Below are positions 25,533 to 63,898 of a stretch of 64,000 nt of DNA, one piece after another; the first letter of the stretch is position 1; each line of letters starts with the position of its first letter. A program made the translations under genes and the position numbers. The notes under the pieces were generated by a model. It did no database searches and was not told where the DNA came from. It was given only the letters and a program-made list of their open reading frames with translations. The stretch covers positions 62,000,001 through 62,064,000 of the forward strand of contig NC_043001.1 in NCBI RefSeq assembly GCF_006345805.1, written 5' to 3'. The stretch comes from Octopus sinensis. Lineage: Eukaryota.

Positions 25533-25741
25533 AATCCATGGTGATGACCCGAGGTCACGGTGACGGCACTACTTTTTGTCATTCATAAGTTACAACTAAA
25601 CTTTCACGAGCCGGTAGAATGTAGCCATATATTTAAACAAACATACTATCTTTTTTATACCAGATATCACTTAAAGTCATATACACATAAAATATAAACA
25701 TTTCTGGTCGTAATTCAATTTTTTGTTGCCAAAAAAATCAC

Positions 25742-25817
25742 AACATATATCGTCTGCTCGTTGATACTGTTGCAGTGCAAACATATATCGTCTGCTCGTC
25801 GATACTGTTGCAGTGCA
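25742..25817. repeat. 38-bp direct repeat x2 just upstream of the YR ATG
   Basis: AACATATATCGTCTGCTCGT(T/C)GATACTGTTGCAGTGCA twice, 1 mismatch. Confidence 0.9.
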
Positions 25818-25835
25818 GGTAGATCTATCAACAAG

Positions 25836-27404
25836 ATGGCTAATGTTATCGATATCAAGGTGAATGATTTTGTTAAGATTGATGGTAAAGATGGGGGAAG
25901 AGTATTATCCATTGTTCAACCTCTTGGAACATACAGAATGTTCAATGTGAAGATAAATACTGGCCAAGTTCGACATGTTGCTGGATACAGGTTAACAAAG
26001 GTACCTGAAACAGTGTCATCGACCAGTGGATTGTCATCGAACCCTGCATTTAACATCCCTGATGAGGTGTACAATGATCTTCTTCATGACGATTTCTTTG
26101 ATGATAGCCATAATGATCTTGAATTTCAACCGAGGTATGATCATTCTGGAATAGATAAATTCGTTCAAGGTAATCAAAATAAAAACACTCTTCGAAAAAC
26201 AAACTATGATGTTAAACGATTGTTTGCTTTCATGGCGACAAATGGCGACATGCGTCCAATTGAATCTATCGACAAAAGTGAACTTTGTGACATTCTCTGT
26301 ACTTTCTTTATTTCGTTACGAAAGCCGGACGGTAGCAACTATGAACCTTCATCTTTGATGGGAATGTTATCCAGTATTGAAAGATATCTGAAGTCAAAAC
26401 ACTACTCGACGTCACTATTCTCGGACGGGACATTCGTGAAACTACATGACATACTAAAAACGAAGCAAAAGCTGTTGAAAAGTGAAGGAATGGGAAACCT
26501 ACCTCGATGCACGGAATCTCTCTCCGACGATGATATCAACAAGCTATGGGAATGTGACCAGCTCGGTCCGAACACACCTGAATCCATCCTCAACACACTA
26601 TGGTGGAACAACACCGTTCACTTTGGTATCTGGAGTGTCAAACCTCACAACGACATGCGATGGGGCGATGTTTCTTTGCATGTTGACAATGAAGGCAAGG
26701 AATTCCTTCAGTTTAGGGAGCGACAGTCCAAAACTTGTCAAGATGATAATCTTGACCATGCACGTAACATCTACCCAAAAGCATGGGCGACGAATGATGA
26801 GCGTTGTCCAGTTAACCTGTACAAGCGTTTTGCTGATCTGAGACCATCAGATTATTCATCGCCGGATTCACCATTTTATTTGGCCACCAACTGCAAAGAT
26901 GCCTCCCATTCTCATCCCTGGTTTAAACGTCAACCGGTCGGTGTCAACAAACTAGGTACAATTATGAAAAGGATGGCTAAATCAGGTGGTTTGGACAATC
27001 AAAGATTCACGAACCATTCAGCACACAAATACCTTGTACAGAAGCTCGCTGACCAGAACATTCCTCCAACTGAAATCATGCAGATATCTGGACATCGTAA
27101 TGTGCAAAGCATCAATAGTTACAGCAATATTTCCATGGATCGTCTTCATGCCATCAGTAACATCCTTAGTAGCAACAACGACCAGCCTGGTTCGCTTGTA
27201 CCTCCGTCACACACAGCAGCAGCGAGTGCAAGTGAACTCCCCTCCACCGTCAACGTTACGTCGAGTCAATCTCAGAACGCTGTCACTTGCTTTGGTTCAT
27301 TGCACTCCATTTTCTCGGCTCCAATATATGGGGGAACAATCAATGTGAACTTCTTTGGTTCAGATGCAAAGCAACCTCGTCTCACAGATAATGAGGACTG
27401 TTAA
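25836..27404 (+). CDS. Crypton/DUF3504-type tyrosine recombinase (ZMYM/QRICH1/KCTD1-related), 522 aa, probably catalytically dead
   Basis: Intronless ORF, ATG in aagATGg; motifs NKNTLRKT, FFISLRKPDGSNYEPSSL, LGPNTPESILNTLWW..FGI(W)S, ERQSKT, RCPVNLY, PFYL, WFKRQPVGVNKL, TNHSA(H)K, ISGHRNVQSINSY. Confidence 0.85.
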   Translation: MANVIDIKVNDFVKIDGKDGGRVLSIVQPLGTYRMFNVKINTGQVRHVAGYRLTKVPETVSSTSGLSSNPAFNIPDEVYNDLLHDDFFDDSHNDLEFQPRYDHSGIDKFVQGNQNKNTLRKTNYDVKRLFAFMATNGDMRPIESIDKSELCDILCTFFISLRKPDGSNYEPSSLMGMLSSIERYLKSKHYSTSLFSDGTFVKLHDILKTKQKLLKSEGMGNLPRCTESLSDDDINKLWECDQLGPNTPESILNTLWWNNTVHFGIWSVKPHNDMRWGDVSLHVDNEGKEFLQFRERQSKTCQDDNLDHARNIYPKAWATNDERCPVNLYKRFADLRPSDYSSPDSPFYLATNCKDASHSHPWFKRQPVGVNKLGTIMKRMAKSGGLDNQRFTNHSAHKYLVQKLADQNIPPTEIMQISGHRNVQSINSYSNISMDRLHAISNILSSNNDQPGSLVPPSHTAAASASELPSTVNVTSSQSQNAVTCFGSLHSIFSAPIYGGTINVNFFGSDAKQPRLTDNEDC

Positions 27405-33004: not shown

Positions 33005-34700
33005 AATGAAGGGACCCTGTTAGTATCATCTGATGTGGTGAATTTGTACACCAATATCCCACACGATTATGGTATAGAAGCTAGAAAAATACCCAGAAGA
33101 GATCCCAGGATGCATCAACCACAGATTCATAATCGCAGCATTCAAATTCATCCTTTCATCAAATTCATCAGTTTACTATCGACATAAATGTGGAATTGCA
33201 ATGGGAACCCGAGCTGCTCCAGTGATTGTGAACTTTGTAATGTGTTACCTAGAGCTTAAAATATATCAATCATCACTACAAAAATATGGCACCTCATTTC
33301 ATTGCTATTTAAAGAAGAACTGGAAGAGGTATTTGGACGATTGCTTTATACTTTGGAAAGACATCATGGACAAACTCCCTGATTTCAAATGCTTAACAAT
33401 ATCAATAGCAACATATAATTCACCATGGAACACAGCAGTAAACAACTCCCTTTTCTTGACATCCTAATTAAAATTGTCAATAACCACATCGAAACAGACA
33501 TCTTCTATACATCCACAGATTCTAAACAATACCTATTATTCAACTCATGCCACCTCAAACACATAAAAATTAATATGCCTTATAATCTAGTGAAAAGAAT
33601 CTGTACCATAGTTTTGGGCACCTATACTTGTGAATGAAGACTCCTTGAACTCAGATCAATACTAATCAAAAGACATTACCCTATATCATTAATAAATGAT
33701 GGCATTAAACAAGCTGAGGAAATAGATATACGAACATTTAGGGAAGTCAAATGAAATACTAAGCCAGACTTAAAAATACTCCCATTCATCTCCACACATA
33801 ACCCTAGAAACAACGAAGCCTTCCACATTATCATCCAAAATCTAGCCATCCTCACAGGAGATAAAACAATGAACAAAATTTTAAGCTCACACAAAATTAT
33901 TAAAAGCAAAATTCAACCTAAATCATAGAAAAACTTATTAACCAGTGCGAGACTATATCCATTAACAACAGAACCAAACGTGAAAAAATGTGATCGACCT
34001 AACTTTGGTACATGCCCCCACCTTTTGGAGGGTTCAGAGTTCCACTTTAAACAAGGTGAAATATTTAAGATTAAATTAAATTTCATTTGTGCCTTGGAAA
34101 ATCTAATCTATGCCATTACATGCTTAGGGTGTGGTAATAATTATATTGGCCAAACAGGAATATCACTCCTTCAAAGAACCACTCTTCACAAACAACAAAT
34201 CTGCCACCCACAATACAGACAGATACAGGTCAGTGAACACATAGAAAGGTGTGCTAGGAATCTTAATCCTAATTTTCCCCTTCTATCAATGTTCACAGAA
34301 CACCCCAGTACAACAAAAAATGAATAAAGAGGCAACTTTCATCAATAAATATCTTCCACTACTCAATATCAACACATAACATAATACAGAACACTACTAA
34401 CCTGTTAATTAATACCACTAACCCCCCTACATCCCATACACCATTCACATTACAGATCTATATCTACCCTAAATGCACTAAATCCAGAACTACTTACCTC
34501 CCTTACACATAATCTTTTTACTCAGGGACTAGTAGACCTAACACTGTTCAGTAATCAGTGTGCATTCAAAGCAATGATTAGTAATTTTACGAAACTGGTA
34601 TGCTTTTGAATCTCTTTAACAATTCACAATAATTACTTTTGTTACTTTTATTCCTACCTTAGCTCATCTAATTGTATATATCTATCATTACTTTTCATAA
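33005..34700 (+). mobile_element. Penelope-like element (RT + GIY-YIG + 3' pLTR), degenerate
   Basis: DVVNLYTNIPH, GIAMGT, RYLDD, LPFLD, C..C linker, NLIYAITCLGCGNNYIGQTG..HKQQI; hammerhead remnant in the 3' repeat. Confidence 0.9.
34565..34610 (+). ncRNA. Degenerate minimal hammerhead ribozyme in PLE pLTR
   Basis: TTCAAAGCA-ATGATTA(from CTGATGA)-GTAA.tt.TTAC-GAAACTG-GTA-TGCTTTTGAA; stems I and II pair, two core substitutions. Confidence 0.65.
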
Positions 34701-38629: not shown

Positions 38630-40560
38630 TACATAAAACACCTGTCTTTATTCTGGTCAAGATTGACGTTCTGCTTGGTTGACTTCCTTGTAGGGATTTG
38701 GTCATTAATTTTTGCTTAATGGTCATCAACCATGGTCATCAACTCAGTTGATTCTCTTAAGGAGTCAGTTTATTTTTTTCTGAAGGAAGGATCACAGGAT
38801 AGTTTAATTGACTTCTTGCATTTCTGAGACTGTTATACTAAAAATTATGGTTTTAAGTCCAATATAAAATTTATGTCTAGTTTTTTAAAAACTAGCATTG
38901 AATTTTTGGACAGAAAGGTTAATTTTTTTGAAGATTGAATTGTGACAGAGTTATTTTGCAAGCCCATGTCATCCCACATTTAATTCCACCTCCACTCCAA
39001 TCATCTACATCATATAATTCAGTTAAATCTGAAATCCCAATATTTCAGGATAAAATAGATTTATACTGATATAGATGATTACTGGAAACATGCAAATCCT
39101 TTTGTATATCATTTTGTCAGACTCAGTTACAGTGAATTACAATTAAAGGAAATTGCAAATGACATAGCCAAGATTAGCAAGGAAAGTCAAACTATCACAC
39201 ATAATTTTAGAAAACAAAGTAAAATATGTGATAGAATTCCTTTAGTGATTAACTGGCACCGAAATTTCACTGACATTTCAAAGGTGTTACATGAAAGTTA
39301 TCAGCATGTTGCAGAAAAATATCATTGTTTCAAACAAATATTCCCTCAGCCACCTATTGTAGACTTTAGATGAAATAAAAAATATAAGAGAACTACTAAC
39401 CTCTACTTCTTACTCCAAGAAAACTAACATTGGAGTTTCTCGCATACTGTATCTTGAAAATCAGCTGTAAGAGAGGTAAGCCCTTTTCATTATGCAACAA
39501 CATGTGTCACGTGAATTCCATCAGGAATCATAACAAAAATGTTATGATTTATATGGAAGGTGGGACATGTAGAGATTCTCATTTGGTGTATGCGGCAGAA
39601 TGCACCAAACACAACTTGATTCATGTTGGTTGTATGACAGAAGAATTAAACAAAAGATTCAACGGGCACAGGTATGACGTCAGGCACAATAACAGTAGTT
39701 CAACAGAACTTGCTGAACATTTTACATCAAATGGCTTTAGTTTTGAAAAAGACTTGAAAGTGCATATTCTCAGAAAATATTCTGAATCTACTACACTTTC
39801 AGTTCTCAAAATGCTGGAGAAGAAATATGTTTGAGTTCTTAACATCACGCCCTGGAGGATGTCTTGCAAACAACTTGCACATGCAAGTGCTACCAGTCAA
39901 AAGCTCCATATACCGGAAGCCAGCAAGTGTATGGGGTCATCAGGAGAGAATGCGCGCCGTTTCGGGGCCTACCTCTTGATGGCATCATTGCGCACCAGCC
40001 CCCCTCACTGATATGAGGCCTCGCTTGCTAGATCAGCTGGTTATGAAGTTAAGCTCAATATCCTTCTAGCCATCACTCATCGTCTCTTTTTAACCAAATC
40101 CAGTGGCTAGCCTTCTCCACTGTAGATTGGATATCAGTCATGGTGGTATTGACCTCACGATGAGTTAGGCCTAGCGATAACAACAGTCGTCTCACACTGT
40201 GTCCAACGAACCCTCTACATCCGACTTCGATTGGAAAATGTTCTGCTTTCCAGCCTGTGTCTTCACATTCCTCGAGGAGGTTTACATAAGGGTTCAATTT
40301 TCGAGCCCGAGCGGCATCCATATTATCTTCATGAACAAAATGATGGCAATTTCATCACATACACAAAACTGTTTGATTAAATATTTTTCTTTTTCTTTTC
40401 CTTTTTTTATGTTTTTTTCTTTTTCTTTTTGCCAGTTGTAAAATTGATAATTGAAGACTGATGATGTCATTCCATCAAAGTAGAAACACAGGATCTCCTC
40501 GTTCAAATTTCTGAATTTCTATAATTTTGAATTTTTATGTATCACTTTTCATTTTCAACT
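38630..40560 (+). mobile_element. Degenerate Penelope-like element, interrupted by a HERO-like fragment
   Basis: IEFLD, HSNHL, RIPLV..WH, C..C linker, HLVYAAECTKHNLIHVGCMTEELNKRFNGHRYD (GIY-YIG); CTGATGA..GAAA remnant at 40453-40500. Confidence 0.75.
39841..40321 (-). mobile_element. 3' fragment of HERO-like (RLE-type) non-LTR retrotransposon
   Basis: ORF 40073-40321: ARARKLNPYVNLLEECEDTGWKAEHFPIEVGCRGFVG..VEKASHWIWLKR, matching the HERO C-terminus; GC/CpG-rich 3' UTR 39841-40072. Confidence 0.8.
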
Positions 40561-41107
40561 CGACAAAGACAGATAAGCTGTCAAAATATCCTTCAAGCCA
40601 ATAAAATACCTATTGCAATCGCATCACACTCTTCATATTGTGTATATACCTTTGTGTTGAGTTATGCCAATCTTTTTAAAATATTATTATTGTTGTTGTT
40701 ATTATTATTATTATTAATAATAACTATTTTACTGCGGTCTTTTTTGTTCTAGAATTCAATAATTTTCCTGAACCTTAGATGTAATTGCATAGATTGGTAA
40801 CTAGATGGATGTAACTGGGTGCAAATGCAGTTTCTGGGATATCTATACTGCAGCAGCACGTGCATCAGAAGCATTTAAATCAAATATGCTGTATAACTGT
40901 CTAAAGAAATAAATAAAATATGCAGATGTATTTATCTCCATATTGTGAAGTACTTACGACCCACTAAAGCAGATCCCAGATTTACCAGTTAAATGAAATA
41001 CATTGGGATTGCCTACTTCAAGTAATCCTAGGTGCTCAATATGGTTACCCACAATGTGGATTATAACTGAGTGCTTGAACAGGACTCACCAGGATACTTT
41101 ATACCTT

Positions 41108-41139
<32 letters not shown>

Positions 41140-41145
<6 letters not shown>

Positions 41146-42010
41146 CATTATATTGACGACTGTATCGGTGCGACCTCACTCTCCCGCAAACATCTAGACT
41201 CTTTCCTCTCTTCTGTCAAATCTTTCCATCCTGCCCTCCACTTCTCCTGCTCTGTCTCTGATACCTCTATCTTCTTTCTTGATATTTCGGTCAGCATTCA
41301 TCATTCCACTCTCACCACCTCTATCCACTACAAACACACAGACTCACACACATACCTCAACTTCTCCTCCTCCCACCCTAAACACACCAAGTTTTCTATC
41401 CCCTATTCCCAATTCCTCCGTCTACACAGGCTCTGCAGTGATGACCATGGCTTTGAGACTCAGTCTCAACACTTCATCCTACATAGATATCCCCTCACCA
41501 CTATCCACACTGCCATTGCCAGAGCACGTTCCGTGGACCATGCATCTGCTCTCTCCACCCGTCCCGCTTTCTACCGTTTCCCCTCACCTACCACCCTACT
41601 ACCCTACCTCTCCAACACACTATTCTCCAATCCTTCTGGCAACTCCAGTCCAACCCCTCCACTTTGCACATCTTCCCTAACTGACCCCTCCCCTCCTTCA
41701 AATGAGCCCGCAACCTACGAGACCTCTTGGTCCACAGCTTCTTCTCTAACCCAACCTCCCAACCCAGCTTGTTCCTCTGCTCCTGCCCATGCTGCTGCAC
41801 TTGCTCTTACCTCTCCAACACCACCCTCCTCACAGGCACCCATCATCGACCCTAAAATTGGTAGAAATGCAGGTGACTCTTTCACCTGCACTTCTACCAA
41901 TGCTATCTACTGCATCTCCTGCTCTCTCTGCCCTTCTCATCTCACCCCACCCCATCCCTTACACCCACTCCCACATACTCCATCACTACTCCCACCCTCA
42001 GCTTAACCCA
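41140..42010 (+). mobile_element. 5'-truncated Penelope-like element (C-rich)
   Basis: YIDDCIG, FHPALHFS, FFLDISV, YKHTDSHTYLNFSSSHP..SIPYSQFLRLHRLCS, FTCTSTNAIYCISC; starts at (TA)n. Confidence 0.85.
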
Positions 42011-42371
42011 CACCCCACCCTTGCTTTCCCCACTCTCGCCTCCCCCACATCCCAACAACACCACCACACCATACACCATACTCAGAATGTAGCAAGAGGT
42101 GAAACACTGCTAAGCATTTTGCCCATCATGCTAATGATTCTGTCAGCTTGCCAAAAATAATAATAATAGTTTCAAATTTTAGCATAAGGCCAGTAGCTTT
42201 GGAGGGGAGGGGGAAATTGATTACATCGAACCCAGTACTCAACTGGTATTTATTTTATCAACCCTGAAAGGAGAAAAGGCAAAGTCAACCTCAGCAGAAT
42301 TTAACTCAGTACATAAGGAAGGATGACTAAGCACTTTGTCTAGTGTGGTAAAGGTAATAATGATGATTACT

Positions 42372-50924: not shown

Positions 50925-51421
50925 GCACACACACACACACATACATACATACATACATACATACATTGGCCTTGTTGAGGCACTCTCTTAAAGAATTAAG
51001 TTGAACAATTCAATCCCAGTTCTTTTTTTTTTAAAGCCCAATTCTTATTTTATTGGTCTCTTTTTTTTGAAGTCCCTTTTTCTGAGCTATGAAATTATGG
51101 GAGGTGTAAACAAATCAACACTAATTGACAAGCAATGTAGGGTTAAACACACAGATATGCATATTCCCACACTCACACACACACACAAACATACACACAA
51201 CTGGCTTCCACATAGTTTCAGTCTATCAAATTCATTCACATGGCTTTGGTCAGCCTAGGGTTATTGTGGTAGATACTTAAAACACTTACCCAAGGTGCTG
51301 TGCAGTGAAACTGATCCTGAAATCACATGACTGTGAAACATAGCTTCTAAACTACATAGCCATGCCTGCACCTAATGTATAAAGAATTTAGTTAAACTCT
51401 AAATGTACAATTATATTTCAG

Positions 51422-52083
51422 CTGAAGATATTGTCTATAATGAAGCAGTGATGCGTGGTGCATTTGTGCAGTTTCTGCGACGATTAGCTGACCAAGTTGA
51501 AAATGGAATCATCCCACTCTTTGATGCTATGACTTTCAGTCCATACAATACAATATCTAATAATGAAGACATTAGCCATAGCAGCAACACATTCAAAATG
51601 TCTCCACCAACACCACCACTACCACAATCACCATCACAACCATCTCTTGCACCCCTGCTGCCAACAACTCCTGAAGAAATCCAGATGCACTCAGGATGTC
51701 ATTCGATGCTGCAGCATCACCAGAAAAGAGACACATTTCATCAACAACAAATACTGCAACAAAGAAAACTGCTTGAACAACAACAAAGGCAACATCAACA
51801 ACATTGTGAACAACAACAACTACAACTCTCACATCATATGTCTGAAATGAATAATATCAATCTTGACGATGATAATGTGGATGGTGATACCAATAATAAT
51901 GTTAATGATGATGATGATGATGATGATGATGATAGATACAATAGTGATCTCATTGTCGAATCCTCCTTCTCATCTGATACTCTTAACAGTAATGGTCAGT
52001 TTAAGCAAGAAACCAATTTCCAACTTAGTAGTCAAGAACATATCTCTGATGGAGTCTTTCCAGAAGATTCCATCAAACATCAG
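51422..52083 (+). CDS. Internal exon of BEN-domain gene (amphipathic helix + P/Q/N/D-rich low complexity)
   Basis: Acceptor atatttcAG|, open 662 nt, strong donor CAG|GTAAGT in phase 0. Confidence 0.8.
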
Positions 52084-52894
52084 GTAAGTTTGATTCTTAA
52101 ATGGTTTCCTTTTTATCACTATGCTCCCAAATAATATTTCATTATTAGTTTATATAAAACTAATAATGAAAGCCCCCTTGGATTGGAATGGTTGCTACAG
52201 AACAAAATGAGATTGAATATACATATATATTCAGCCCAAAGTTTTTTTTTTTTCATAGTGTCCAAGAAATAATAGGAATAATCTAATTATTATTAAGAAT
52301 AAACTTGGCTGATTTACTGCACAGGCATGGCTCTATAGAGCAAATTGACAGTATCAACAACCAGAGCCTTATGTTGGCCAAAGGGAATTCTGGAGGAATG
52401 ATGTTCTAAGATAACTAGATGTATTCATTAGCACAATGTCTGAAAGAGTTAACAAAGTATGAGTGACAAAAGAAGATACACAAATGAGTGGAGGTGGCAT
52501 GAGGTCAACCAGCTTGAAGAGCAGAGATCACCGTAACAGTAGTAGAAAAAAAAACACATTAAGGAGACAGCATATTTGTATATCAGTGTAGGATGCATTC
52601 GACAAAAATAGCAAGGTAAAAGATGTATCAAATAAAGTACTGAGATCAAATATAATTGTCAAAAATTCTTAATGGCAGTGCCCTAACTGAAGCAAGTAAA
52701 AGTATAAAAGAACAAAAACCAGTAAAAGAATAAAAGTTCATATTGAGGGTCTTCATCAATTGGAATGGTTAATACAATGGTTGCATGATCAATGAAATCA
52801 GAATGGTTAATACAAGCTGAAATTAGTTGTTTTAAAGATTCTTAGGAATATATTTAAGTAATTAAATATATTCATTATATATGCGGTATTATCT

Positions 52895-59800: not shown

Positions 59801-60469
59801 GCCAGGGATCAAACATAGATACGAGGCGATAAGTAACCCGCCACGTGTCTATATGTTATAATTTTTCGAATCTTCTCTGTATATATATATATTGTATCTT
59901 TTCCTTTTACTTGTTTCAGTCATTAGACTGTGGCCATACTGGGGCACAGCCTTGAATTTTTTGTCAAATGAATCAATCCACTTCTTATCTTTTAAGCTTG
60001 GTACTTATTCTATCAATCTCTTTTGCAAGCCGCTATGTTATGCAAACACACCAACCCTAGTTGTCAAGCAGTAGTGGTGGGGGGGTGGACAAACATAGAC
60101 AGAAAGACACACACACATAGATATACATCATCATCATTGTCATCATTATTTCATGTCCGTTGTCCATGCTGTCATGTGTTAGATAGTTTGACCACTCACA
60201 AGGTTTTGGCCGGCCTGAGGCTATAGTAGAAAACACTTGCCGAAGGTGCTATACTGTGGGACTAAACCCAGAACCATGTGGTTGGAAACCAAGCTTCTTA
60301 CCACACAGCCACAACAGCATCTATATGTGTGCTTATATGTATATAACACACATACACACACATATATATATACACAGAACACACGCATGCGCACACACAC
60401 ACGCATATGTATGTGTGTGCATATATATACACAGAGTGTATATATATACATAGAGTGCATATATATACA

Positions 60470-61258
60470 TAGAGTAAAATCAATTTACTAACATAAAGTG
60501 ACAGTCCTGATTAGGACAACGTTACTGCCTTCTTTAGCTCCAGGGGAACATTTTTTCCAGCTGGCTACTGATGCACAGCTGTGTCTTTATACTTCGAACG
60601 AGGGAGCTAATGTCTCCACTCAGTCTTAAACAGTACCTGTGGACCATGGTTTCTGGGTTATTTCTCTTCATGGTTTGTAGGTACTGTTTAAGGCTGAGTG
60701 GTGACATTAGCTCCTTTGTTCGAGATATAAGGACACAGTTGTGCATCAGTAGCCAGCTGGAAAAAATGTTTTCCTGAAGCTAAAAAAAGGAAGTAACATC
60801 GTCCTAATCAGGACTGCCACTTTACATTGGCAAATAGATTTTATTCTGTAGTACTGTTACTACTTACTTCTTGCTCGGAGATTTAAAACTTATTGTTTTC
60901 CTCTTTACAGGATCAGTGTCTGTGTGTTACTTTAAAAGTATATACCTCAAACAAGGCCTAGTGCTGCCATCTCTAGCCAACCGTTTTCCTGTGCTGATGA
61001 AGGGAAACAACTCAGAAACCATGGTCCACAGGTATCCACAGGTACCTTTTAAGGTTGAGTGGAGGCATTAGCTCCCTTGTTTGAGGTATAAGGACGCAGT
61101 TGTGTGTTGGTAGCCAGCTGCAACAGATGTTTACTGGTGCTAAAAAAAGTAGTAACATCGTCCTAACCAGGACTGCCGCTATATATTGGCAAATAGATTT
61201 TACTCTATAGTACTGTTACTACTTCTTGCTCAGATGTTTAAAACTAATTGCTTTCCTC

Positions 61259-61260
<2 letters not shown>
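60470..61260 (+). mobile_element. Non-coding hammerhead-delimited repeat (retrozyme / PLE-pLTR-like): inverted partial copy + 1.6 tandem units
   Basis: 60470-60640 is the reverse complement of 60678-60850; unit 60678-61026 is repeated from 61027 to 61260; (TA)-rich microsatellite on both flanks. Confidence 0.8.
60988..61032 (+). ncRNA. Minimal type-I hammerhead ribozyme, intact core
   Basis: CCTGTG-CTGATGA-aGGGaaacaaCTCa-GAAA-CCATG-GTC^-CACAGG; 6-bp stem I, palindromic stem III ACCATGGT, predicted cleavage after C61026. Confidence 0.9.
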
Positions 61261-61296
<36 letters not shown>

Positions 61297-61599
61297 ATAT
61301 TTATTTGTATGTATATATATTAACACTATTTTAATAATAAGAATTACTACATAATTGCATAGCATTATCTTCAATACTGCCTTACATAGACCAACACATG
61401 TTTCAATTGCACCATTTAGTAACCGTTGCAATTGCAACCCTACTATAAAACTTCAGAGTCTTTACTTGATATCCTTCAATTTGGCCATTTAAATATTTTC
61501 TTTTATCTTCTCTGCATTGTATAATGTCTGTTAAGTTAGACACGAACAATCTCCATTTCAAGTTTTTATTAGATAATTATTTTTAGTCCATTATTTCAA

Positions 61600-63898
61600 A
61601 ACCTGGGGCACTAGCCTTTAATGATGGTGAAAAGAAAGAGGCTTGGAGAAGCCATTATGAAAGACTGTTGAATGTGGAGAATGAATGGGAGGAGGAGAGC
61701 CTGCCAAATGTTGACCCAGTAGAGGGACCAGCTATCTGAATAGACAGCTCCCTTGTAGTTAAGGCAATTAAGGGTATGAAACCAGGTAAAGCCCCCGGCC
61801 CATCAGGAATCACTGCTGAGATGCTTAAAACAGCTGGTTATGTGGGCTATGGCCTAGTCACCCGCATTGTAAACCAGGTAGTTCATAATGGAGTCATACC
61901 CAATGACTGGCGTAGCAGCACCATAGTCAACTGCTACAAGGTGATGCTCTAGACAGAAATAACTACAGGGGTATTAAACTGTTGGATCAGGTGATGAAGG
62001 TCACAGAGAGGGTCATAACCCATCTCATTAGGGAGAGAATTTGCTTAGATGAGATGCAGTTCGGTTTTGTGCCGGGTAGAAGCACCACTGATGCTATATT
62101 CCTGGTCCGACAACTGCAGGAGAAGTACCTAGCTAAAGATAAACCCCTCTACATAGCTTTTGTGAACTTGGAGAAAGCCTTTGACAGGGTCCCCCGATCC
62201 CTTATCTGGTGGTCGATGCGGAAACTGGAGATTGACGAATGGCTAATAAGGGCTGTACAGGCCCTATACAGAGAGGCTGTCAGCAAGGTTAGGATTGGCA
62301 ACAAATATAGTGAAGAATTCCTGGTAGAAGTAGGTGTACACCAAGGCTCAGCCCTCAGTCCCCTTTTATTCATCATAGTCCTCCAGGCAATAACAGAGGA
62401 ATTCAAAACAGGTTGCCCCTGGGAGCTCCTCTATGCTGATGACCTGGCTCTCATAGCAGAATCACTACCGGAACTAGAAAAAAAATTTCGGGTGTGGAAG
62501 CAAGGGTTAGAATCAAAGGGCCTTAGAGTAAATGTAGCAAAGACCAAAGTTATAGTAAGCAGAAAGGCGAACTCAGCACACACCCCATTGGGCAGGTGGC
62601 CCTGCTCGATCTGTAGGAAAGGTGTAGGTAGAAACTCCATAAGATGTACCCAGTGTAAGCTATGGACGCATAAGAGGTGCAGCAACATCAAAGGGAAATT
62701 AACTGATAAGATAGCTTTCATGTGCAGCAGATGCACAGGGACAATAGACACCACAGATACTCATAAAACAGATTCCATCACACTCCAGGGGGAGAAACTA
62801 GAAGTAGTTGATAGTTTCCGCTACCTGGGTGACCAATTTAGTAGTGGGGGTGGATGCTCAGAAAGTGTCACCACTAGAATACGAATAGCCTGGGCAAAGT
62901 TTAGAAAGCTCCTACCCCTACTGGCGACAAAGGGTCTCTCGCTCAGAGTGAAAGGTAGATTGTATGATGCATGTGTGCGAACTGCCATGCTTCACAGTAG
63001 TGAAACATGGGCCATGACTGCAGAGGACATGCGTATACTTGAAAGAAATGAAACTAGCATGATCCGTTGGATGTGTAATGTCAGTGTGCACGCACGACAG
63101 AGGGTAAGCACCCTGAGAGAAATGCTGGACATAACAAGCATCAGATGTGGTGTGCAAGAGCGACACTTGCGATGGTATGGTCATGTACTGCGGATGGATG
63201 AGGAGAGATGTGTGAAGAAGTGCCACTCCCAAACAGTTGAAGGTATCAGGAAGACATGGGATGAGGTAGTCAAGCATGACCTCAGAGCGTTGGGCCTCAC
63301 AGAGGCAATGGCGAAGGACTGAGATCTCTGGAGATATGCTGTGACTGCAAAGGCCCGGGCTGCTTCCTGCACCAGTTTCACATAGCCCCTGCCTATTCAA
63401 AGTACCTTGGATTCTAGAACATCCCGCTGTGCTTGAGGAGACCTATTGAGTCAAGTACATGAACATCGAAATAAATATCAATGGAAATAGTAGTTGTGAT
63501 ACCTGTGCCGGTGACACATAAAAAGCACCATCCGAACGTGGCTGATGCCAGCGCCGCCTCGACTGGCTTCTGTGCCGGTGGCACATAAAAAGCACCATCC
63601 GAACGTGGCCGATGCCAGCGCCACCTAGACTGGCTTCCATGCCGGTGGCACGTTAAAAGCACCAACCGATTGTGGCCAATGCCAGACTCCCCTGGCACCT
63701 GTGCCGGTGGCACATAAAAAGCACCCACTACACTCGCGGAGTGGTTGGCATTAGGAAGGGCATCCAGCTGTAGAAACACTGCCAGATCAGACTGGAGCCT
63801 GGTGCAGCCCCTGGCTTCCCAGACCCCGGTCGAACTGTCCAACCCGTGCTAGCGCGGAAAACGGACGTTAAACAACGATGATGATGATGATGATGATG
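61600..63898 (+). mobile_element. Young 5'-truncated RTE-clade LINE with 3' UTR minisatellite and (GAT)n tail
   Basis: Long RT ORF; 3' UTR tandem units 63500-63730; ends GGACGTTAAACAAC(GAT)n. Confidence 0.92.
61982..63322 (+). CDS. RTE reverse transcriptase (partial ORF, 446 aa) with embedded PHD-like finger
   Basis: QFGFVPGRSTTDAIF, KAFDRVP, GVHQGSALSP, LYADD, FRYLG, LRWYGHVLR; C4HC3 at 62603-62734; upstream frameshift and stop show the copy is defective. Confidence 0.9.
   Translation: MDQVMKVTERVITHLIRERICLDEMQFGFVPGRSTTDAIFLVRQLQEKYLAKDKPLYIAFVNLEKAFDRVPRSLIWWSMRKLEIDEWLIRAVQALYREAVSKVRIGNKYSEEFLVEVGVHQGSALSPLLFIIVLQAITEEFKTGCPWELLYADDLALIAESLPELEKKFRVWKQGLESKGLRVNVAKTKVIVSRKANSAHTPLGRWPCSICRKGVGRNSIRCTQCKLWTHKRCSNIKGKLTDKIAFMCSRCTGTIDTTDTHKTDSITLQGEKLEVVDSFRYLGDQFSSGGGCSESVTTRIRIAWAKFRKLLPLLATKGLSLRVKGRLYDACVRTAMLHSSETWAMTAEDMRILERNETSMIRWMCNVSVHARQRVSTLREMLDITSIRCGVQERHLRWYGHVLRMDEERCVKKCHSQTVEGIRKTWDEVVKHDLRALGLTEAMAKD

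Follow-up and report, generated by a model that had tools for sequence, protein, structure and literature searches.

The hammerhead repeat and its surroundings

Close to the right end of the window, by which we mean the whole 64,000-nt stretch of Octopus sinensis DNA that was analyzed, lies a pair of repeat arms placed head to head between TA-rich microsatellites (Table 1). The plus-strand arm contains one full unit of 351 nt and runs on into a second, partial unit, and the minus-strand arm is an inverted partial copy with an incomplete ribozyme, from which the opening bases of the core and the 5′ strand of stem I are missing. The second partial unit, the inverted copy broken inside its hammerhead, and the microsatellites on both flanks had all been recognized in the earlier note, which had the first direct unit begin at about 60678; the unit of about 350 nt is real, but its arm starts at 60669 and the unit itself at 60676. 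The inversion junction was spanned with zero differences by one contig of run X15, which may be the assembly's own sample. As had also been claimed, the unit carries no protein: The longest ATG-initiated open reading frame (ORF) was 70 amino acids (aa) within 60468-61262 and 45 aa in a doubled family consensus. Any target duplications at this locus are hidden by the microsatellite flanks.

Table 1. Features of the two-armed insertion, in window coordinates.
Feature	Position	Strand	Remarks
Left flank, TA/CA-rich microsatellite	60318..60470	.	Inferred target site
Short-end arm	60471..60671	-	Unit positions 321-350, then 1-171; equals L001 1293-1493
Inversion junction	60669..60671	.	3-nt overlap CAT common to both arms
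Long-end arm	60669..61262	+	Unit positions 344-350, one full unit, then 1-231; equals L001 1491-2084
One full 351-nt unit	60676..61026	+	39.6% GC; 92.5% identity to family A consensus
Type I hammerhead motif	60988..61032	+	Sequence, descriptor, covariation; weak stem II; predicted cut after C61026
10-nt tandem duplication	61025..61044 (61025-61034 / 61035-61044)	+	Crosses predicted cut site
Tail, about 60 nt	61203..61262	+	Unit positions about 172-231; plus arm only; start coordinate approximate
Right flank, (TA)n microsatellite	61259..61320	.	TA-rich sequence

The hammerhead motif reads, in order, CCTGTG (60988-60993), the core CTGATGA, A-GGG-AAACAA-CTC-A, GAAA, CCATG-GTC, and CACAGG (61027-61032), with a stem I of 6 bp, a palindromic stem/loop III, ACCATGGT, and a stem II of 3 bp closed by an A.A mismatch. 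It was the one match to a hammerhead descriptor, and the one complete motif, within the 64-kb window, as compared to a match in 2 of 100 dinucleotide-shuffled windows. The isolated motif was about as stable as its shuffles (z of 0.11 and -0.53), and the forced hammerhead fold (-4.5 kcal/mol) was weaker than the minimum-energy fold (-11.2 kcal/mol). An Rfam search of the window, which had been suggested as a check, returned no hammerhead at the gathering threshold or at E-values up to 10. From the earlier description of an intact type I hammerhead, the motif, its palindrome, and the predicted cut thus survive, whereas "intact" was generous in view of the short and mismatched stem II and the weak fold.

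The plus arm starts 7 nt upstream of the position homologous to the cut site, where the remnant reads GTT, so that only the 3′ end of the unit carries a ribozyme, which does not support the cleavage-to-cleavage monomer that had been supposed. From this layout with a single complete ribozyme, we infer that the locus can neither free a monomer by double cleavage nor form a dimeric fold in cis. Li et al. (2026) reserve the status of active retrozyme for two consecutive units with complete hammerheads; since the window locus holds one complete motif, we filed it as a decayed copy and not as an active source. Its arms, at 79-93% identity to the family consensus, do not support a young or intact element; it is an old and probably inactive copy, and probably a dead end.

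Two local peculiarities of the sequence were pursued and dropped. The duplication across the predicted cut site, which the earlier note does not mention, might have been a ligation scar, but it occurs in only 2 of 45 ribozyme copies (the window copy and L010), and slippage on short repeats accounts for it. An intron running from the ribozyme to about position 232 was suggested by a polypyrimidine-CAG stretch at 60893-60910 of the window copy, but most copies read TTTACGAG there, and no joint of this kind appeared among the contigs listed for runs with unrecorded library type, which makes the intron unlikely. We also noted, at approximate coordinates, an 8-nt duplication across the cut site at L010:1800-1830 and a 16-nt deletion across it at L012:1490-1510.

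Elsewhere in the window, fragments of three families of Penelope-like elements (PLEs) lie at 33078-34327, 39400-39834, and 41071-42160; relatives of the second of these show a CTGATGA motif in their 3′ region and end in (TAA)n. A 568-aa frame (25698-27404, plus strand) with DUF3504 and a weak phage-integrase match is one that we take to be Crypton-like. The reverse transcriptase (RT) frame of a LINE, 468 aa long and presumably RTE-like (61916-63322, plus strand), lies 650 nt downstream of the hammerhead element, and a 67-nt tandem repeat occupies 63503-63725; no link to the element was seen for either. A 243-aa frame rich in glutamine and aspartate, without a Pfam match (51403-52134, plus strand), is possibly a host exon.

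A dispersed family and its two sisters

Hereafter, we refer to the dispersed family of the 351-nt unit as "family A." The copy-number check that the earlier note had proposed bore out a genomic repeat: Searching the animal's own genome (2.72 Gb) with the window unit gave 1,776 first-look candidates, with 40 scored and 130 matches, the main ones at about 80 to 90% identity. The exact 32-nt ribozyme pattern, found at only two genomic places, was useless for copy number. We fetched 30 loci, which are the best matches and not a random sample. Family A is old, since its arms longer than 200 nt have a mean identity of 87.8% to the consensus (n = 40) with heavy CpG decay. Head-to-tail tandem copies are present, with the ribozyme crossed twice in 9 of 50 arms, the longest of which measures 697 nt.

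Among 46 family A copies, core position 4 was C in 31 and T in 11, giving a consensus core of CCGAUGA. The share of T (24%) lies inside the range of the other 11 CpG sites (7 to 33%), so that the textbook CUGAUGA of the window copy may be a decay product of CCGAUGA; its CACAGG may likewise be CpG decay (consensus CGCAGG), and it is possible that U4 source copies of family A once existed. U4C is described in PMC3088659 as a natural hammerhead variant with considerably lower activity in vitro. A canonical core together with a stem I of at least 5 bp and a 3-bp stem II was found in only 3 of the 46 ribozymes. In a subgroup (L003, L009, L013, L020, L026, L029, and L030), an extra T in loop III, giving CCATTGG, breaks the perfect palindrome.

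Two sister families were first met in loci fetched for PLE genes. Family B has a 352-nt unit and 1,974 candidates (L083 to L112, e.g., L087:1368-1719, minus strand), of which we analyzed 27 loci after leaving out 3 of 30 as duplicates or overlaps. It is collinear with family A at 67% identity over 335 aligned bases, and it is young, with arms at 94-99.5% identity to a reference unit, a canonical ribozyme core, and a stem II of 4 to 5 bp. One of its arms reaches 1,136 nt, more than three units, and 1 of 43 arms crosses the ribozyme three times. Family C, with 3,306 candidates and no ORF of its own (L143 to L162, e.g., L158), is older than family B.

Covariation was assessed on a 17-row alignment of the three families, in which 13 of the 22 named pairs showed double-sided changes and 93.5% of cells paired, as compared to 17-41% in slid controls; against shuffles, the cell count was superior but the pair count was not (31 of 500 shuffles). 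The core bases were fixed while stems I and II and loop III covaried, the latter reading ACCATGGT in family A, ACTCGAGT or ACTCGGGT in B, and ACCCGGGT in C, i.e., with different letters but retained self-pairing. When folded separately, the three consensus units gave matching helices from differing sequences. The predicted circular folds of the family A consensus and of family B were more stable than those of shuffles (z of -5.7 and -8.1, respectively), and the window copy had a predicted z of -2.2. These models argue for selection on the whole unit as an RNA, at the scale of three families and few independent events. Because the long stem forms both in a circle and across a tandem junction, the fold does not separate the two. 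A look for RNA records with family B listed none. Contigs from runs of unrecorded library type, presumed to be RNA, cover families A and B; strand, ends, circles, and level are unreadable from contigs.

The same covariation bears on a reading in which the repeat is a fold-back or satellite element at the DNA level, with an incidental likeness to a hammerhead and arms made by repair or gene conversion. Such an element would sit well with the empty Rfam search, the ordinary stability of the isolated motif, and the possible CpG origin of its canonical core. It is hard to square with a core that stays fixed amid covarying stems and loop across three families, or with ends that, unlike terminal inverted repeats, differ by a fixed tail and meet at scattered inner junctions (see below), and we consider it most improbable.

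Insertion footprint and the search for a helper

Of the 30 fetched family A loci, 22 displayed the two-armed, head-to-head layout, and the outer ends of most insertions were, on both sides, 3′ ends of RNA. These ends fell into two classes. A short end (unit positions 155-180) was paired with a long end (200-235) in 13 of the 22 loci, using end windows that were set after the data were seen and including by hand L011, whose minus arm had been filtered out. Short-short or long-long pairs occurred in none of the 22, and nine had one irregular end; in a permutation test, 13 such pairs were attained in 177 of 100,000 permutations. The window locus follows the same pattern, as its minus arm ends at the short fixed site (position 171) and its plus arm at the long one (position 231). 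In family B, 14 of 17 two-armed loci ended at 167-173 and 216-219, where the query stopped at the long site and hence favors long ends; the short site aligns with that of family A. At the long end of L092, the final 24 nt of the tail are duplicated ahead of (TA)n.

The inner junctions, by contrast with these fixed outer ends, were spread along the unit, with an overlap of 2 to 5 nt in 11 of 18 cases. Among the 50 family A arms, 34 crossed the cut site once, 9 twice, and 7 never. That 43 arms traverse the site points to a template that was a circle or an uncut multimer rather than a cut linear monomer. We asked whether 5′ ends within 5 nt of the cut site betray a linear RNA that had been cut and set this aside, as there were 3 of 50 in family A and 1 of 43 in family B, too few and query-biased. 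In 7 of the 43 family B arms, 5′ ends fell at unit positions 38-43, within the 5′ strand of the long stem, which is possibly an RT stop site.

Insertions also shared a target preference, as (TA)4 lay within 60 nt of the fixed ends in 20 of 36 cases for family A and 37 of 40 for family B, as compared to 6.3% of background windows. Furthermore, non-consensus, non-CpG bases were shared more often within a locus than between loci: In family A, segments of one locus had 1.17 to 1.28 such bases in common per 100 sites and segments of different loci 0.63, about a twofold difference, and in family B, the difference was three- to fourfold. This level was reached in 0 of 5,000 resamples. At the sequence level, this sharing fits one template per insertion, although gene conversion between neighboring arms could have raised it and the segment pairs are not independent.

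At the family level, we found all the hallmarks given for PLE insertions by Craig et al. 2021 (PMC8557442), namely a partial tandem with an inverted 5′-truncated copy, a one-ended tail, and a (TA)n bias. Together with a palindromic helix III, for which dimeric hammerhead action in PLEs is described by Cervera and de la Pena 2014 (PMC4209133), they match what these two sources and Frangieh et al. 2024 (PMC11167929) report of endonuclease-bearing PLEs. In the anole PLE of the latter study, the tail is the stretch between two internal RT start sites, and the enzyme, modeled as a dimer, cuts and extends both strands; two start sites downstream of the ribozyme are likewise suggested by the end pattern of families A and B. 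The unit differs from endonuclease-bearing PLEs as portrayed there in having neither an RT nor a GIY-YIG ORF, in closing on itself, and in its tail, which measures 60 nt in family A and 43 to 46 nt in family B instead of 30 to 40 bp. A literature search combining "twin priming" with PLE terms returned nothing relevant.

Potential helpers abound, as the genome holds many PLE families, including 775-aa and 781-aa ORFs with RT and GIY-YIG domains. Copies of both of these families end in (TA)n, and the pLTRs of the 775-aa family contain a distinct hammerhead of their own. A parent was sought with a GIY-YIG family query, 20 widened loci, and three PLE protein queries, which sampled only some of the PLE families. 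A terminal repeat homologous to the 350-nt unit was found in none of the 110 loci fetched by these protein queries, a few of which are not PLEs or repeat one another; a parent could be among the Octopus Naiad families listed in the supplement of PMC8557442. Among the loci of this parent search, L064, L059/L069, L125, and L049 gave profile matches; L064 and L069 turned out to be separate TA-flanked insertions, and L125 looks two-armed. On the minus strand of L082 lies a PLE of the same family as the 775-aa ORF of L064, which ends in (TA)n; a distance of 4.3 kb separates its two pLTRs, both of which contain a hammerhead-like motif of core CCGAAGA. An unrelated hammerhead-like repeat with a 4-bp stem I (CTGT/ACAG) occurs in L062, L037, L084, and the flank of L008, in inverted pairs in L062 and L084.

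These searches weigh on the possibility that there is no independent small element, and that the copies are 5′-truncated stumps (a pLTR plus an inverted pLTR) of an autonomous PLE that escaped the search. Solo or inverted pLTR hammerheads spaced 100 to 700 bp apart are described as truncated PLEs in PMC4209133, and the many PLE families of this genome were sampled in part. Against this, the end of the unit runs directly into its own start, since the two ribozyme crossings of the nine tandem arms are separated by no more than 350 nt, and three families keep the same unit frame without an ORF. Of 80 family A, B, and C loci, 5 had PLE protein matches nearby, two of them the starting loci; in family A, there was 1 in 30 (L026), which abuts the 3′ end of an arm on the other strand. 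None of the 30 family A loci had an ORF in the unit or a PLE ORF fused to it, contrary to the earlier concern that all copies might be attached to PLE ORFs. We hence judge stumps very unlikely. The earlier proposal of a non-autonomous hammerhead retroelement with PLE-type insertion holds up, given the high copy number, the self-closing 350-nt unit without an ORF, and the two-armed ends.

A possible route of copying and its relation to known retrozymes

Non-LTR retrozymes are described by Cervera and de la Pena 2020 (PMC7229834) as hammerhead repeats of 170 to 400 nt that occur as circular RNA in coral, mussel, and axolotl and for which PLEs have been put forward as helpers. Family A resembles them in its non-coding, tandem-forming unit of 351 nt with a type I hammerhead motif, 39.6% GC (below 50%, as in that account), and strong predicted self-pairing, and the mussel units of 350 to 390 nt are of similar size. 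It differs in that circles and cleavage are demonstrated there and predicted here, and in having mostly two short head-to-head arms and a C4 core instead of long arrays, with the window locus holding one complete ribozyme. For vertebrates, Li, Clavereau, and Pollet (bioRxiv 10.64898/2026.07.22.740005) concluded that non-LTR retrozymes represent non-autonomous PLE derivatives. Class and proposed helper are the same as here, and most of their families also consist of few units, but their link to PLEs is pLTR homology, which was not found among the 110 loci fetched here, whereas the link here is the insertion footprint. Of nine Xenopus retrozyme dimers that they tested, one cleaved and eight did not; no mollusc was among their samples. 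The novelty that the earlier note implied does not hold, as both retrozymes and their connection to PLEs have already been published, and our search of the open-access literature found no paper on cephalopod retrozymes. Judged by sequence-level features, which agree with the retrozyme definition, the window element is an addition to the hammerhead retrozymes known from animals, and it works like a PLE-mobilized one.

Our preferred reading, which we hold to be probable, is that the locus is an old copy of a 350-nt hammerhead repeat that encodes no protein, and that a borrowed Penelope-type enzyme inserted this copy into a TA microsatellite. The unit RNA would fold into a conserved branched structure in which the hammerhead closes a long stem, as predicted and supported by covariation. 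By analogy with known retrozymes, tandem transcripts would be cut into units by two ribozymes that pair via the palindromic loop III, and a host ligase would then circularize these units; on that analogy, we put a circular stage at roughly even chances. The end pattern and the start sites of the anole PLE suggest that a PLE endonuclease would then cut both strands of (TA)n, and that both DNA ends would prime RT, at two fixed sites inside the RNA that lie about 170 and about 230 nt past the cut site. Both cDNAs would run back through the ribozyme, halt at scattered points, and be linked in head-to-head orientation where they have a few bases in common, a mechanism that would produce the layout observed. 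The window copy has since decayed, with one complete ribozyme left, and it is probably a dead end.

The PLE-driven, two-site insertion could also have used an uncut, linear RNA transcribed through an earlier tandem copy, with a hammerhead that is weak or merely trims and with no circle at all. Family A spread although its core has C4 and its stem II is weak, which would suit such a template, as would arms that stay within about two units (697 nt at most) and a long stem that forms equally well across a tandem junction. In the anole system, moreover, ribozyme cleavage is reported to be dispensable for insertion in vitro, the main substrate being uncut RNA (PMC11167929). However, linear copying cannot lengthen an array, yet one family B arm exceeds three units; families B and C retain canonical cores and self-complementary loops III; and mussel units of 350 to 390 nt are described as abundant circles (PMC7229834). 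We consequently find a linear template rather unlikely, though a serious contender. More specifically, and tentatively, with the odds somewhat against it, a single 350-nt circular RNA may be the template on which a dimeric PLE enzyme primes from both broken DNA ends, the two start sites being defined by structure and staying in register across families a third diverged.

Published work has proposed, on the grounds of co-occurrence and pLTR homology, that PLE enzymes copy animal retrozymes, but has not shown it. The fixed short and long ends provide a footprint that links retrozymes to PLEs and names exact candidate RT start sites. By itself, the window copy adds little; for experiments, the young family B is preferable. 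If dimeric priming on one circle is true, every insertion would record both priming events, family B would be a ready substrate for showing that PLE enzymes mobilize retrozyme circles, and family A would be an example of wide spread by such a parasite despite a weakened C4 ribozyme.
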